Assembly: GCF_003334255.1 (NCBI RefSeq)
Contig: NZ_QOWU01000005.1
DNA length: 64,000 nt
Direction: 5' to 3' (one strand)
From: Escherichia coli
GTDB lineage: Bacteria; Pseudomonadota; Gammaproteobacteria; Enterobacterales; Enterobacteriaceae
The stretch's first letter is position 1, and the number at the start of each line of letters is the position of its first letter. The translations under genes were made by a program, and so were the position numbers. The notes below the pieces were generated by a model. That model made no database searches, was not told the origin of the DNA, and saw only the letters and a list, made by a program, of their open reading frames with translations. Below are positions 53,056 through 56,112 of this stretch, one piece after another.

Positions 53056-54146
53056 TGAGAATATCATTAGAAGAGAATTCAGTAGTTTTTATTCTATATC
53101 AATTTCATATTGGCGGTGTCGAAAGTGCACTAATAAATCTGCTTGAGAATATTAAAAAGAAGAGAGTATATTTGATCTTTGCAATGAATAAGATCAACAA
53201 TGAACTCCTAAAAAAAATTCCTCATAACGTCAAAATAATTGGACTAGGAATAAATAATAAAAATATATGTCATTTAATTGGTTATACACGTAGATTAAGC
53301 AAACGATATGATTTTAGTAGAACACACATTGTTAATTTTTCTGATACCCTATCAACTCTAATAATTCAATATTCTTTGAATGCAAAATTAAAGACATCGT
53401 GGGTTCATTGCAATCCATTAACTTTGATAAACTCTCGTTCATTTCAGTTATATAAGTATTTATTAGTTAGAAATGATAAAATAGTTTGTTTGTGTGAATC
53501 ACAGAAAAATCTCTTAATAAAGGTGATGCCCAAAGCGGAAAAAAAAGTCACCATTATATATAATTGTGTTGATGCTGATATCCTTTCAAAAGGAGCTCAA
53601 GAAAAAGTTGACGTTGATTATAAATATATAATAAAAGTTGCAAGATTTGATGAAAGAACAAAAGATTTCATTACTCTTATAGATGCATATTGTAAACTAC
53701 CTAAAGAAACACAAGATACGTATAAACTTGTATTATTAGGTGATGGACCTGATCTCGAAAATGTTAGAAATTATACAAGAAAAAAAAACAACATGCAAAA
53801 CATATTTTTTCCGGGTAAAGATGTCAATCCTTTTAAATGGATTAAACATTCGCAGTTCTTGGTGCACTCCTCAACATCAGAGGGCTTTTCTCTTGTTCTG
53901 TTGGAGGCCATGTTATTAGGTAAAGTTGTGATTGCATCTGATTGTAATTGTGGTCCTTCTGATATACTGGATAATGGGAATGCAGGATTCCTATTCAATG
54001 TTGGTGATGTTGATAGCTTAACCTGTATTATGCAAAATTTATTAGTTAATCAAGACATCATCAATATATATACCAATCGCTCTCTTGTTAGAGGCGTTGA
54101 ATTACAGTTGAAAGCAAATAGGCAGGTTAAGGAGTATTTTTTGTGA
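53055..54146 (+). CDS. Glycosyltransferase, GT4-like (about 363 aa)
   Basis: C-terminal GT4-type features (STSEGFSLVLLEAMLLGKVVIASD); ATG overlaps the wzy stop (TGATG). Confidence 0.8.
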   Translation: MRISLEENSVVFILYQFHIGGVESALINLLENIKKKRVYLIFAMNKINNELLKKIPHNVKIIGLGINNKNICHLIGYTRRLSKRYDFSRTHIVNFSDTLSTLIIQYSLNAKLKTSWVHCNPLTLINSRSFQLYKYLLVRNDKIVCLCESQKNLLIKVMPKAEKKVTIIYNCVDADILSKGAQEKVDVDYKYIIKVARFDERTKDFITLIDAYCKLPKETQDTYKLVLLGDGPDLENVRNYTRKKNNMQNIFFPGKDVNPFKWIKHSQFLVHSSTSEGFSLVLLEAMLLGKVVIASDCNCGPSDILDNGNAGFLFNVGDVDSLTCIMQNLLVNQDIINIYTNRSLVRGVELQLKANRQVKEYFL

Positions 54147-55102
54147 GTAGTGTATCTGTATGCATTGTGACTTTTAATCGTAAAAATGACCTGTTGAGAT
54201 GTCTAGATAATGTTCTTAAACAGTCACACGTTGTCAGTAATATCCTTATATATGATAATGCATCTACTGATGGGACCACTCGGTTTCTGCTTAGTAAATA
54301 TTGCGCTATATTATCTCCATCAAATATTCCTCAAAAGATTGCAACCCTAAATGACATAAATATCTGGCTTGTTACAGCGACAGAGAACTCTGGAGGTGCT
54401 GGCGGGTTTCATTATTCTGTAAAATTATCTCGTGAAATATTCGATACTGATTATTATTGGTTAATGGATGACGATGGTTACCCTTCTAAAGATTGTTTAA
54501 ATATTCTTATGCAATATGCAGAGACGCATAATTCTGATTATGTTATGCCTGTTAGTATAGATATTGATAATAATGAACAGCTATCTTGGCCAACACGAAA
54601 AAAAAACCATGCAAAAACTGAATGTTATAAGGAATTATATGAGTCGTGGGGAGATGTTATGGATTATGTTACACCTTTTAATGGTTCTCTCTTAAGTAAA
54701 AAATGTATTGATAGTGTTGGGTATGTGAATAAAGATTTTTTTATTTGGGGGGATGAGTATGAACATTACTGGAGATGCAAAAAAGCAGGAATTCATCCTG
54801 TAACAATTATGAATGCAAAATTCTATCACCCGTCACAAAAGTTACCTCTTCAGCCATGTTTTTTTGGATTGATTAAATTACCCTATGTCGATTCTCCATT
54901 ACGTATGGTATGCCTAGTTCGAAATTATACATATATTTATAAAAAATATGACTCAAAATTAAAAATAATTCTCAAGCTTATATCTTATAGTTGGTTTTTC
55001 TTAATAACAAGAAAGCTTGATGTTAAAGGTTTTGTCTTATACTTAAAAAGTGTTCTTGATGGATTAAGAAATGATTTTACAAGACATAGAGATTTTTTAT
55101 AA
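54143..55102 (+). CDS. Glycosyltransferase, GT2 (319 aa, GTG start)
   Basis: VCIVTFNRKNDLLRCLDNVLKQS...GGAGGF...YYWLMDDDGYP; paralogue of the next gene. Confidence 0.8.
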   Translation: MSSVSVCIVTFNRKNDLLRCLDNVLKQSHVVSNILIYDNASTDGTTRFLLSKYCAILSPSNIPQKIATLNDINIWLVTATENSGGAGGFHYSVKLSREIFDTDYYWLMDDDGYPSKDCLNILMQYAETHNSDYVMPVSIDIDNNEQLSWPTRKKNHAKTECYKELYESWGDVMDYVTPFNGSLLSKKCIDSVGYVNKDFFIWGDEYEHYWRCKKAGIHPVTIMNAKFYHPSQKLPLQPCFFGLIKLPYVDSPLRMVCLVRNYTYIYKKYDSKLKIILKLISYSWFFLITRKLDVKGFVLYLKSVLDGLRNDFTRHRDFL

Positions 55103-55209
55103 TACAGGTTGATACATTTCATAAAAACATAATGATAATGGATAATCAATTTGCATCTTAATTATTTTTACTACCTTCCCTGCTCGATAAATATGTTTAT
55201 AGGGTTAAT

Positions 55210-56112
55210 ATGACTGTTATTGCTATAGTTGTAACATTTAATCGCTGTGCGCTTTTGAAAAAAGTTTTGCATTCGTTGCTTTCTCAATCAATTGCATTAA
55301 ATAAAATAATAATCATTGATAATGATAGTAATGATGATACAGCTAAAGTCGTGCATGATTTTTCTGAAGTGGATGATATTTTTTATTATTATAACACAGG
55401 AGATAATCTGGGAGGGGCTGGAGGGTTTTATCAGGGGTTTAAAATCGCAGAGCAGTTTTATTATGACTATCTTTGGTTAATGGATGATGACCTTCTACCT
55501 GAGCCTGATTGCCTAGAGAAATTAATCCAAGATAGGCCAGAAGGAATTGTTCAGCCGGTAAGATACGATCTTGATGGTGCTTGTGCTGAAATATCACCTG
55601 TTGAGTATAATCTTCAAAAAATATTTTGCAGGAATCCTAAAACCAAAACAGTAAAAGAAGTGATTTCAACAGTTATTTCTGATAATTGTCGGGAAATCGA
55701 TATTGCAGGTGTTCCTTTTGAAGGTCCTTTAATTTCAAAGTCGGTAGTTAATAAAGTGGGGTATCCAAATCCTGATTTTTTTATTTTTAATGATGATCTT
55801 GATTATTCGTTAAGGACGAGAAGTAAAGGTTTCTCTATAAAGTGTATAGTCGACGCCAGGGCTACAAGGCTTTTAAAAAATAATCAAAAAAATGATTTGA
55901 AAAGCTGGAAAGGATATTTCATGTTGAGAAATCATTATTATATCCTACGAAACTATGGTGAAAATAAGCTCGTTAAGAATCGAGTCTATCTCATCATGTT
56001 TTATTATTTTTTGAAGTCAGTTTTTTCTTTTGATTATAAGTTCGCAAAAGTGGTTATTTTTTCTTTTAAAGATTCATTTTCGCTTAAAAATAGCAAAAGA
56101 TTTCGACCATAG
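55210..56112 (+). CDS. Glycosyltransferase, GT2 (300 aa)
   Basis: IAIVVTFNRCALLKKVLHSLLSQS...GGAGGF...YLWLMDDDLLP; paralogue of the preceding gene. Confidence 0.8.
   Translation: MTVIAIVVTFNRCALLKKVLHSLLSQSIALNKIIIIDNDSNDDTAKVVHDFSEVDDIFYYYNTGDNLGGAGGFYQGFKIAEQFYYDYLWLMDDDLLPEPDCLEKLIQDRPEGIVQPVRYDLDGACAEISPVEYNLQKIFCRNPKTKTVKEVISTVISDNCREIDIAGVPFEGPLISKSVVNKVGYPNPDFFIFNDDLDYSLRTRSKGFSIKCIVDARATRLLKNNQKNDLKSWKGYFMLRNHYYILRNYGENKLVKNRVYLIMFYYFLKSVFSFDYKFAKVVIFSFKDSFSLKNSKRFRP

Follow-up and report, generated by a model that had tools for sequence, protein, structure and literature searches.

Mammals lack Galf, and well-defined Galf transferases from bacteria therefore have some appeal, both as targets and as tools in glycan synthesis. 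In E. coli O-antigen synthesis GlcNAc-PP-undecaprenol is produced by WecA, and in E. coli K-12 (O16) one beta-Galf is added by WbbI during repeat-unit assembly, with glf in the cluster. In GlfT2, a DXD motif is said to form the metal site, with Asp372 as the base and His396 as a metal ligand, a description attributed to Wheatley et al. in 2012. GlfT1 forms Galf-Rha and Galf-Galf linkages without polymerizing (PMC11294581), and in S. pneumoniae WciB is a Galf transferase of capsule-unit assembly, again with glf in the cluster (PMC3989065). For WfdJ, encoded in the E. coli O167 / S. boydii type 3 cluster, ECODAB predicts the formation of Galf-(1,3)-beta-GlcNAc (Lundborg 2010, cited in PMC3989065); as far as it is cited there, the literature on WfdJ specificity consists of prediction only.

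The O167 cluster and its last two genes

The window, that is the whole stretch of 64,000 nucleotides of E. coli DNA analysed here, carries the O-antigen cluster of E. coli O167 / S. boydii type 3, which is Wzx/Wzy-dependent and lies between galF and gnd. The assignment follows from the serogroup-specific wzx and wzy genes, this position and the names already published for the genes: the cluster DNA is a 100% match to that of E. coli 214-4, RefSeq labels wzx and wzy as flippase and polymerase of the O167 family, Wzy matches B5L3W2_ECOLX and B5L3V3_SHIBO (an identical Wzy is present in S. boydii), and the UniProt names of the two proteins studied here are WfdJ (B5L3V5_SHIBO) and WfdK (B5L3V6_SHIBO). 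The gene names, like the sequence of the cluster, reportedly date from 2008. The pair is an already known, ordinary feature of this cluster, with both genes named and a Galf role for WfdJ present in ECODAB. The label O169:H41 is attached to one of the matching RefSeq records; the published O169 antigen, however, has Glc and GlcA side branches and is related to O183, a description that does not suit a cluster encoding Glf and an amidoligase, and O169 was therefore rejected as the serogroup. An L-alanine amide has been reported for O167, which fits the ATP-grasp amidoligase of the cluster. According to a review (PMC7685785), the O167 cluster holds one GT more than the structure requires, and this surplus is left unexplained. 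The features are the following:

46414..54146, + strand: remaining O-unit genes of the O167 type, including wzx and glf (open reading frames, HMM matches, RefSeq)
47672..48760, + strand: glf, UDP-galactopyranose mutase, UDP-Galf supply (TIGR00031, 465 bits, cut-off 303.75; RefSeq name glf)
48793..49995, + strand: GT4, O-unit gene of the cluster
49992..50849, + strand: ATP-grasp TupA-like amidoligase, O-unit gene of the cluster
50849..51757, + strand: GT2, generic EpsE/WcaA-like, third GT2 of the cluster
51805..53055, + strand: wzy, O-unit gene of the cluster
53052..54146, + strand: GT4, directly upstream of wfdJ
54143..55102, + strand: wfdJ ("A", 319 aa; open reading frame and RefSeq CDS), A-type GlfT1-like GT2, predicted UDP-Galf:GlcNAc-PP-undecaprenol beta-1,3-galactofuranosyltransferase
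55103..55209, + strand: spacer between wfdJ and wfdK, 107 nt, AT-rich
55210..56112, + strand: wfdK ("B", 300 aa; open reading frame and RefSeq CDS), B-type GT2 resembling GlfT1 and the GlfT2 core, predicted second galactofuranosyltransferase

The two genes are the last ahead of gnd (56165), lie on the same strand and appear as the same two CDSs in the RefSeq annotation of identical E. coli genomes. The GTG start of wfdJ overlaps the stop codon of the GT4 gene before it, with AAGGAG 8 nt upstream of this start, while wfdK starts with ATG; the strand opposite to both genes holds no open reading frame of at least 80 aa. No terminator-like site was found on the + strand of the spacer, promoter-like sites in the region numbered 12 against 11.9 in shuffles, and a regulatory element in this spacer was rejected because nothing rose above the shuffled sequences. 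Across homologous pairs the spacer length varies from 13 to 193 nt. The gene order of the cluster is kept in Edwardsiella tarda, in Photobacterium damselae and in a metagenome.

Homology and origin of the pair

The original prediction described wfdJ and wfdK as neighbouring paralogous GT2 genes with common motifs, and this description held, with both open reading frames exact and the motifs located at VTFNR (residues 9-13 in WfdJ, 8-12 in WfdK), GGAGGF (84-89 and 68-73) and WLMDDD (106-111 and 89-94). The two proteins are 32% identical over 236 aa by BLASTP (E 8e-29), and alignment of their family profiles by hhalign gives a probability of 100% and an E value of 1.1e-45 over 276 columns. This likeness is far above chance and exceeds that between generic GT2 enzymes, as judged by the third GT2 of the cluster, which has no similarity to either protein (E 0.3 with WfdJ, 0.67 with WfdK). 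An inverting GT2 of GT-A fold is indicated for both by matches to PF00535 and PF13641 on both protein clusters, by the DDD motif and by a Foldseek probability of 1.00 to GT-A structures. WfdJ and WfdK are best regarded as true homologues, paralogues within one GT2 subfamily.

It had also been proposed that the pair arose by tandem duplication inside this O-antigen operon, followed by divergence to two related linkages. The genes are indeed adjacent and co-oriented and have motifs in common, but the two proteins are not each other's closest relatives: WfdJ and WfdK each have orthologues of 50-66% identity outside Escherichia but are about 31% identical to one another, and within the respective hit sets the median identity is 53% (A) and 51% (B) to the own query, with only 31% and 30% when compared with the partner. 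In a neighbour-joining tree of the family the A and B classes fall on separate sides, and they are told apart by a class-specific residue, His in 119/119 members of the A class and Arg in 67/68 of the B class. At the DNA level the likeness is confined to 27 nt (85%), encoding the WLMDDD motif. Moreover, an A-type gene directly followed by a B-type gene was found in about 30 further loci, those of Nocardioides, Psychrobacter, Pigmentiphaga, Pelistega, Endozoicomonas and Psychromonas. The same order is present in Actinomycetota as well as in Beta- and Gammaproteobacteria, and tandem pairs adjoining glf recur from Psychromonas to Nocardioides; in Psychromonas arctica, glf, A and B are the sole GT genes apart from the initiating phosphotransferase. 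A recent duplication is ruled out by the identity medians, the tree and the short DNA likeness, and an origin in this operon altogether appears extremely improbable. With the two classes well apart in the tree and pairs of the same order in distant phyla, the A/B split is best read as ancient, and the pair as acquired together, by horizontal sharing, rather than born here. What had looked like a tandem duplication is thus an ancient, horizontally shared A-type/B-type arrangement.

Galf transfer as the predicted function

The best NCBIfam match of both proteins is the GlfT1 model NF050113, with 134.8 bits for WfdJ (full length) and 79.5 bits for WfdK, both under the equivalog cut-off of 330 bits. 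Related A- and B-type proteins of other loci score 79-157 bits, with none reaching this value, and although GlfT1 is their best match, WfdJ and WfdK are not, as judged from these scores, GlfT1 orthologues. Weaker matches concern the rhamnosyltransferase subfamily TIGR01556 (45 bits for A, 37 bits for B). GlfT2 is recovered from the sequence of WfdK (E 1.2e-9) and from the B-family profile (4.7e-14); the WfdJ sequence has no match in the PDB, and the A-family profile retrieves there only generic N-terminal GT2 matches, so that the link of WfdJ to GlfT2 comes from the GlfT1 HMM and from structure. In the AF2 models (pLDDT 94.1 for WfdJ and 95 for WfdK), the best TM-score of WfdJ, 0.70, is to GlfT2, and the top 7 Foldseek matches of WfdK are all GlfT2 (TMq 0.74-0.79). 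The match covers the central part of GlfT2 only (chain residues ~190-470, TMt 0.33-0.40) and, with 319 and 300 aa against ~640 aa, neither protein has the make-up of the GlfT2 polymerase.

Apart from one His, the catalytic motifs are conserved in both families. All 187 family members carry TFNR, GG.GG[FY], DDD and the DD(D/E) acid pair without exception, and DDD and the acid pair (D204-E205 in WfdJ, D195-D196 in WfdK) align with GlfT2 residues 256-258 and 371-372. Invariant residues in 31 orthologues of WfdJ are DDD 109-111, WGD 202-204 followed by E/D 205, H229-P230 and R260-N261; those of WfdK are DDD 92-94, D195-D196, R220, W233-K234-G235 and R240-N241. At or next to the column of GlfT2 His396, WfdJ has H229 and WfdK has R220. 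This residue, His-Pro or Arg, is a simple signature separating the A and B classes, and the chemistry of the B class may be different, with Arg in place of the metal-binding His of GlfT2 and the A class. Four diverged versions of the cluster have kept both genes and, among three versions that are ~65% identical, dN/dS is ~0.09-0.11 for both, no higher than for the other GT genes. Both are thus functional by this measure and under purifying selection, and a pseudogene or decaying copy was rejected on account of the invariant motifs and the low dN/dS.

The association with glf points to Galf transfer, both in this operon, where glf, already noted in the original prediction, would supply UDP-Galf, and across the families. 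A-family motifs were found in 80 genome loci, of which 67 have glf within 10 kb and 56 within 1.5 kb; in the remaining 13 no glf is in reach, most of these being truncated contigs. All six B-family contexts examined have glf (6/6), and in four clusters that lack an A-type gene the B-type gene overlaps or directly adjoins glf. Such B-type genes without A occur in E. coli, Enterobacter and Vibrio, A-type genes with glf and without B occur in Pasteurellaceae, Treponema and Bacteroidota loci, and true A orthologues (at least 43% identity) are mostly without a B-type partner. Since each class occurs alone, neither enzyme would need the other, and B would not be devoted to Galf-onto-Galf transfer in all clusters. 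That no other obvious Galf candidate is present in the cluster was borne out, the remaining GTs being two GT4 enzymes and the generic EpsE/WcaA-like GT2. Galf transfer, suggested earlier for one of the pair, is the best reading of GlfT1 as best NCBIfam match, of GlfT2 as best structural match and of glf linkage; the restriction to one did not stand, as the evidence favours both.

We hold with moderate confidence that both proteins are GlfT1-like GT2s and Galf transferases, with WfdJ predicted to place the first Galf onto GlcNAc-PP-undecaprenol and WfdK another Galf. Both would be inverting enzymes of GT-A fold using the UDP-alpha-D-Galf that Glf of this cluster produces. On GlcNAc-PP-undecaprenol provided by WecA, WfdJ would add beta-Galf to O-3 of GlcNAc, as predicted in the literature and consistent with the present evidence, and WfdK would add a further beta-Galf, most simply to the first Galf, an acceptor that we infer only. 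The two polypeptides would then do the job of GlfT1, making one Galf-to-sugar and one Galf-to-Galf linkage with no further polymerization. The other residues, including the uronic acid bearing L-alanine, would be added by the remaining three GTs (two GT4 enzymes and one GT2), before the unit is flipped by Wzx and polymerized by Wzy.

Two other readings concern how many of the enzymes use Galf. One of the pair may use it alone, with the other taking a pyranose donor (Glc, Gal, GlcNAc) or a rhamnose-like one, so that the two linkages would be unrelated. The TIGR01556 matches, the breadth of a family that extends beyond GlfT1 and the A-type loci without glf are in keeping with this; yet each class is linked to glf independently of the other, truncated contigs account for most of the loci without glf, and GlfT1 is far ahead as the best match of both proteins, which makes a single Galf user rather unlikely. 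If the unit does have one Galf only, the surplus O167 GT could be WfdJ or WfdK. That this surplus enzyme is one of the pair and is dispensable or non-catalytic, acting as a redundant copy or as a helper that resembles a GT, is suggested by the GT count in PMC7685785 and by a catalytically inactive GT-like partner, STM0725, in another furanose system, Salmonella T1 (PMC11294581), as well as by the conserved His missing from the B class. All other catalytic motifs are however kept in both proteins (DDD, the acid pair and the invariant RN), the retention and low dN/dS speak against dispensability, and in several clusters with glf the B-type protein is the lone GlfT-like enzyme and would have to be active there; we consider this reading quite improbable.

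Beyond this locus, a tentative and still doubtful suggestion is that the A/B pair with glf forms a two-enzyme "Galf-Galf primer" module of wide occurrence, in which the B class would be mechanistically distinct galactofuranosyltransferases through their invariant Arg in place of the metal-binding His. If so, metal dependence might be altered or absent in the B class, and the "extra" O167 GT would have a genuine chemical role instead of being a spare gene, for instance if an acid-labile Galf had been under-counted when the published structure was determined. Galf transfer by both WfdJ and WfdK would in any case assign a concrete role to two out of five GTs, in a serogroup for which the review offers no explanation of the GT number.

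Comparison with known Galf transferases

The kind of job proposed here is that of WbbI and WciB, the addition of a single beta-Galf with glf in the cluster. To our knowledge, WbbI and WciB belong to protein families unrelated to WfdJ and WfdK, and we know of no such protein encoded in this cluster. Gene 13G of H. parainfluenzae strain 13 (PMC3989065) is 36% identical to WfdJ, adjoins glf and belongs to a cluster whose O unit has Galf-(1,3)-beta-GlcNAc. The A-type class is found in eleven Haemophilus, Aggregatibacter and Actinobacillus loci; unlike wfdJ, 13G and the single A-type genes of Pasteurellaceae lie in ABC-transporter-dependent clusters without a B-type partner, and their specificity is likewise inferred.

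GlfT2 (PDB 4FIX/4FIY, 9DTP, 9NJ0/1; STM0724 in Salmonella) is the best structural match of both proteins and has in common with them TFNR, NLGG(S/A)GG, (M)DDD, the DD acid pair and the W..YF.LRN segment. It differs in its extra N- and C-terminal domains, so that ~38-40% of it is covered (TMt), and it is a processive polymerase of ABC-transporter or cell-wall pathways, whereas WfdJ and WfdK are core-only proteins of a Wzy-dependent repeat-unit pathway and the B class carries Arg at or beside the metal ligand.

GlfT1 of M. tuberculosis (Rv3782, NF050113) resembles WfdJ and WfdK in its ~300 aa, its single GT-A domain and its motifs. Like the proposed pair, it acts on a lipid-PP-linked primer containing GlcNAc, makes one linkage of Galf to another sugar and one Galf-Galf linkage, and then stops. 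The bit scores of WfdJ and WfdK are far under the cut-off of its model, and its acceptor is Rha-GlcNAc-PP-decaprenol in place of the GlcNAc-PP-undecaprenol proposed here. GlfT1 is moreover one bifunctional enzyme, whereas in the O167 cluster the same two linkages would be split between two paralogues.

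The O-antigen cluster and its gene content

The stretch from 46.4 to 56.1 kb of the window has a G+C content of ~30%, is flanked by galF (44500-45405) and gnd (56165-57571), and carries on one strand wzx, glf, a GT4 gene, an ATP-grasp (TupA-like) gene, a GT2 gene, wzy, a further GT4 gene, A and B. The genes discussed below are the following.

Genes of the window discussed in the text
49992-50849, + strand, ATP-grasp TupA-type protein (RefSeq "ATP-grasp fold amidoligase"; PF14305 in homologues)
54143-55102, + strand, A (wfdJ), GT2 glycosyltransferase, 319 aa
55210-56112, + strand, B (wfdK), GT2 glycosyltransferase, 300 aa
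59052-60056, – strand, NAD-dependent epimerase, UDP-glucuronate 4-epimerase-like, between ugd (57793-58986) and wzzB

Since wzx and wzy are labelled "O167 family" in RefSeq, A and B are exact matches of UniProt WfdJ (B5L3V5_SHIBO) and WfdK (B5L3V6_SHIBO), and an identical Wzy is present in Shigella boydii, the cluster is, by its sequence, the known E. coli O167/S. boydii type 3 O-antigen cluster. At the DNA level the A-B pair is fully conserved (100% identity) in E. coli 214-4 and 23AR1101, with 99.5% identity in a third genome. NZ_CP062824.1 (L001), a genome labelled E. coli O169:H41 in RefSeq, carries this O167-type cluster at 99.5% identity; the gene content of the cluster is at odds with the published O169 description, and the label is probably a serotype error. 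The galF-wzx interval holds a frameshifted and truncated ISAs1-family transposase remnant (~45854-46296, + strand; RefSeq annotation of the identical genome 214-4), which may be a trace of the arrival of the cluster.

The ATP-grasp protein has no NCBIfam match, shares 68–72% identity with its counterparts in the syntenic loci L002 (enterobacterial metagenome contig) and L088 (Edwardsiella tarda), and has a homologue in Photobacterium damselae (L089) too. An amidoligase of this kind fits the amide-linked L-alanine listed for O167 in the standard review (PMC7685785), and the protein is the most evident candidate enzyme for adding L-alanine to the O167 uronic acid. That acid is, as the comparison suggests, supplied by ugd and the epimerase, because ugd and a comparable epimerase lie at or near the 3' end of the cluster in P. 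damselae (L089, 8907-11141) and E. tarda (L088, 13308-15647).

Relationship and origin of wfdJ and wfdK

The motifs by which A and B had been proposed to be paralogues are present in both proteins, and the relationship is borne out by pairwise alignment (32% identity over 236 residues, E 8e-29) and by alignment of 31 A-orthologues to 34 B-orthologues (276 columns, probability 100%, E 1.1e-45). This is far above the unrelated-GT2 baseline, given by the cluster's remaining GT2, which has no BLASTP similarity to A (E 0.3) or to B (E 0.67).

The original prediction also implied that the pair arose by duplication and divergence; a duplication inside this operon is rejected, as each protein has closer orthologues elsewhere. 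Those of A (66–48% identity) occur in the enterobacterial metagenome contig, Psychromonas, Psychrobacter, Limosilactobacillus, Treponema and others; those of B (65–47%) in Edwardsiella, Photobacterium, Vibrio, Psychromonas and many Enterobacterales, including other E. coli O-antigen clusters. The median identity of A-matches is 53% to A vs. 31% to B, while B-matches in the same comparison are 51% identical to B and 30% to A. At the DNA level the likeness of A and B is limited to a 27-nt motif-coding stretch, and a neighbor-joining tree of 187 family members, rooted at the midpoint, separates the A and B classes across the root.

Counterparts of the entire nine-gene cluster, with A preceding B, are found at three other loci with ~65% protein identity: in E. 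tarda (L088), in P. damselae (L089) and on the L002 contig, the last having a GalF that shares 90% identity with that of the window. In L002 (5602-7711) a 58-nt gap replaces wzy between the GT2 and GT4 genes, with synteny otherwise kept, and no wzy is found elsewhere from galF to the contig end. In Psychromonas arctica (L003), glf-A-B are the sole glycosyltransferase genes beside the initiating phosphotransferase. An A-family motif scan with one genome per species gave 80 loci, in ~30 of which an A-side gene is directly followed by a B-side gene (Nocardioides and relatives, Psychrobacter, Pigmentiphaga, Pelistega, Endozoicomonas); A is upstream wherever both were resolved, overlapping ORF predictions blurring the picture at two further loci. 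For all pairs tested, the GlfT1 model matched the upstream member over its full length (128–157 bits), whereas it matched the downstream member over the first ~200 positions only (79–105 bits), and the A and B of the window have the same coverage. A-then-B is thus an old, mobile arrangement.

Either class is also found singly. A orthologues without B stand in a GT2-wzy-GT4-A block in Treponema, Limosilactobacillus pontis and Psychrobacter.

Blocks homologous to window 50849-55102 (GT2, wzy, GT4, A-type), without a B-type gene
L006, 1495-5831
L009, 6809-10954
L012, 6733-10954
L007 (Psychrobacter), 3-2213; the contig begins inside wzy, leaving wzy, GT4 and A visible

Because this block recurs without B, the O167 cluster would seem to have been put together from two or more older modules. 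In clusters of E. coli, Enterobacter cloacae and Vibrio parahaemolyticus that have no A, the B orthologue overlaps glf or directly adjoins it. Other arrangements, all without a B-side gene, are two glf copies with a tandem of two A-side genes in each of two Nitrospirota MAGs (L037, L040), and three consecutive A-side genes adjoining a single glf in another locus (L084).

One alignment column splits the 187 members, with His-Pro in 119/119 A-side vs. Arg in 67/68 B-side proteins (A 229, window ~54827-54829; B 220, ~55867-55869). The NR, GG..GF, DDD, D(D/E) and RN motifs do not vary in either class. The column lies at or beside the one aligned with the GlfT2 metal-ligand His, which hints that the B class may differ in metal or diphosphate handling. 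This signature and the ancient A-then-B order are all that is mildly new here.

A starts with GTG, overlapping the stop codon of the upstream GT4 gene and preceded by AAGGAG. The 107-nt A-B spacer holds no terminator-like site on the + strand, and promoter-like sites in the A-B region are not above shuffled sequence. All family-invariant residues are retained in A and B, and all five glycosyltransferase genes are kept in the three diverged cluster versions compared, in which dN/dS, where computable and with synonymous sites saturated, is ~0.10 for A, 0.09–0.11 for B and 0.13–0.29 for the other three. Judged from these data on sequence, A and B are both functional genes.

Indications of galactofuranose transfer

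A and B are conserved GlfT-like GT-A enzymes of two glf-linked classes. GlfT1 is the best curated-family match for both, and B matches GlfT2 chains by sequence (E 1.2e-9; 4.7e-14 with the B family profile). The TFNR, NLGG(S/A)GG and MDDD motifs and the DD pair align with GlfT2, the DD pair corresponding to Asp371-Asp372 and the His of "WHM" to His396, after correction for the 20-residue tag of chain 4FIX; roles as the putative catalytic base and as one metal ligand were reportedly assigned to these residues by Wheatley and colleagues in 2012. The AlphaFold models of A and B are confident (pLDDT 94.1 and 95.1); in Foldseek the top seven matches of B are all GlfT2 structures (TMq 0.74–0.79), and the best TM-score of A is with GlfT2 (0.70). 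glf lies inside the 10-kb flanks of 67 of the 80 A-type loci (56 inside 1.5 kb), those without it being mostly on truncated contigs, and is present in all six B-type contexts.

According to a prediction in ECODAB, E. coli WfdJ makes Galf-(1,3)-beta-GlcNAc (PMC3989065). The Haemophilus parainfluenzae gene 13G, with 36% identity, adjoins glf, and the O unit of its cluster has this linkage (PMC3989065); the Haemophilus loci recovered here likewise fall in the A-side class. The suggestion that one of the pair transfers Galf agrees with this evidence, and its restriction to only one was probably too cautious.

Possible roles of the two enzymes

In E. coli the GlcNAc acceptor is GlcNAc-PP-undecaprenol, made by WecA. 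WfdJ would, as predicted in the literature, add Galf onto O-3 of this GlcNAc, and WfdK would follow with another Galf, the simplest acceptor being the Galf just added. The acceptor of WfdK, which we infer, is the weak point of this scheme; the B-type class is not restricted to Galf acceptors, because it works without an A-type partner in other clusters.

The O167 unit is presumably a pentasaccharide including Galf and an alanine-amidated uronic acid. O167 is listed among three serogroups with one glycosyltransferase beyond the need of the structure, unexplained (PMC7685785), a remark that allows two interpretations. A unit with two Galf residues would leave one of the remaining three glycosyltransferases superfluous; with a single Galf the superfluous enzyme would be WfdJ or WfdK, an option hard to square with how strongly both are conserved. 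There is no sign of decay in the surplus gene, since all five are retained in the three diverged versions, with dN/dS of 0.09–0.29 where computable.

Both genes already bear names, and a Galf-transferase function had been predicted for one of them, which makes this a known and ordinary finding. WfdJ and WfdK would be two polypeptides for the two linkages of the bifunctional GlfT1, which makes two linkages and then stops (PMC11294581). They are proposed to work like GlfT1 but are not GlfT1 equivalogs, because their scores are far under the cut-off; with GlfT2 they have the catalytic core in common, but not its extra domains and polymerase context.
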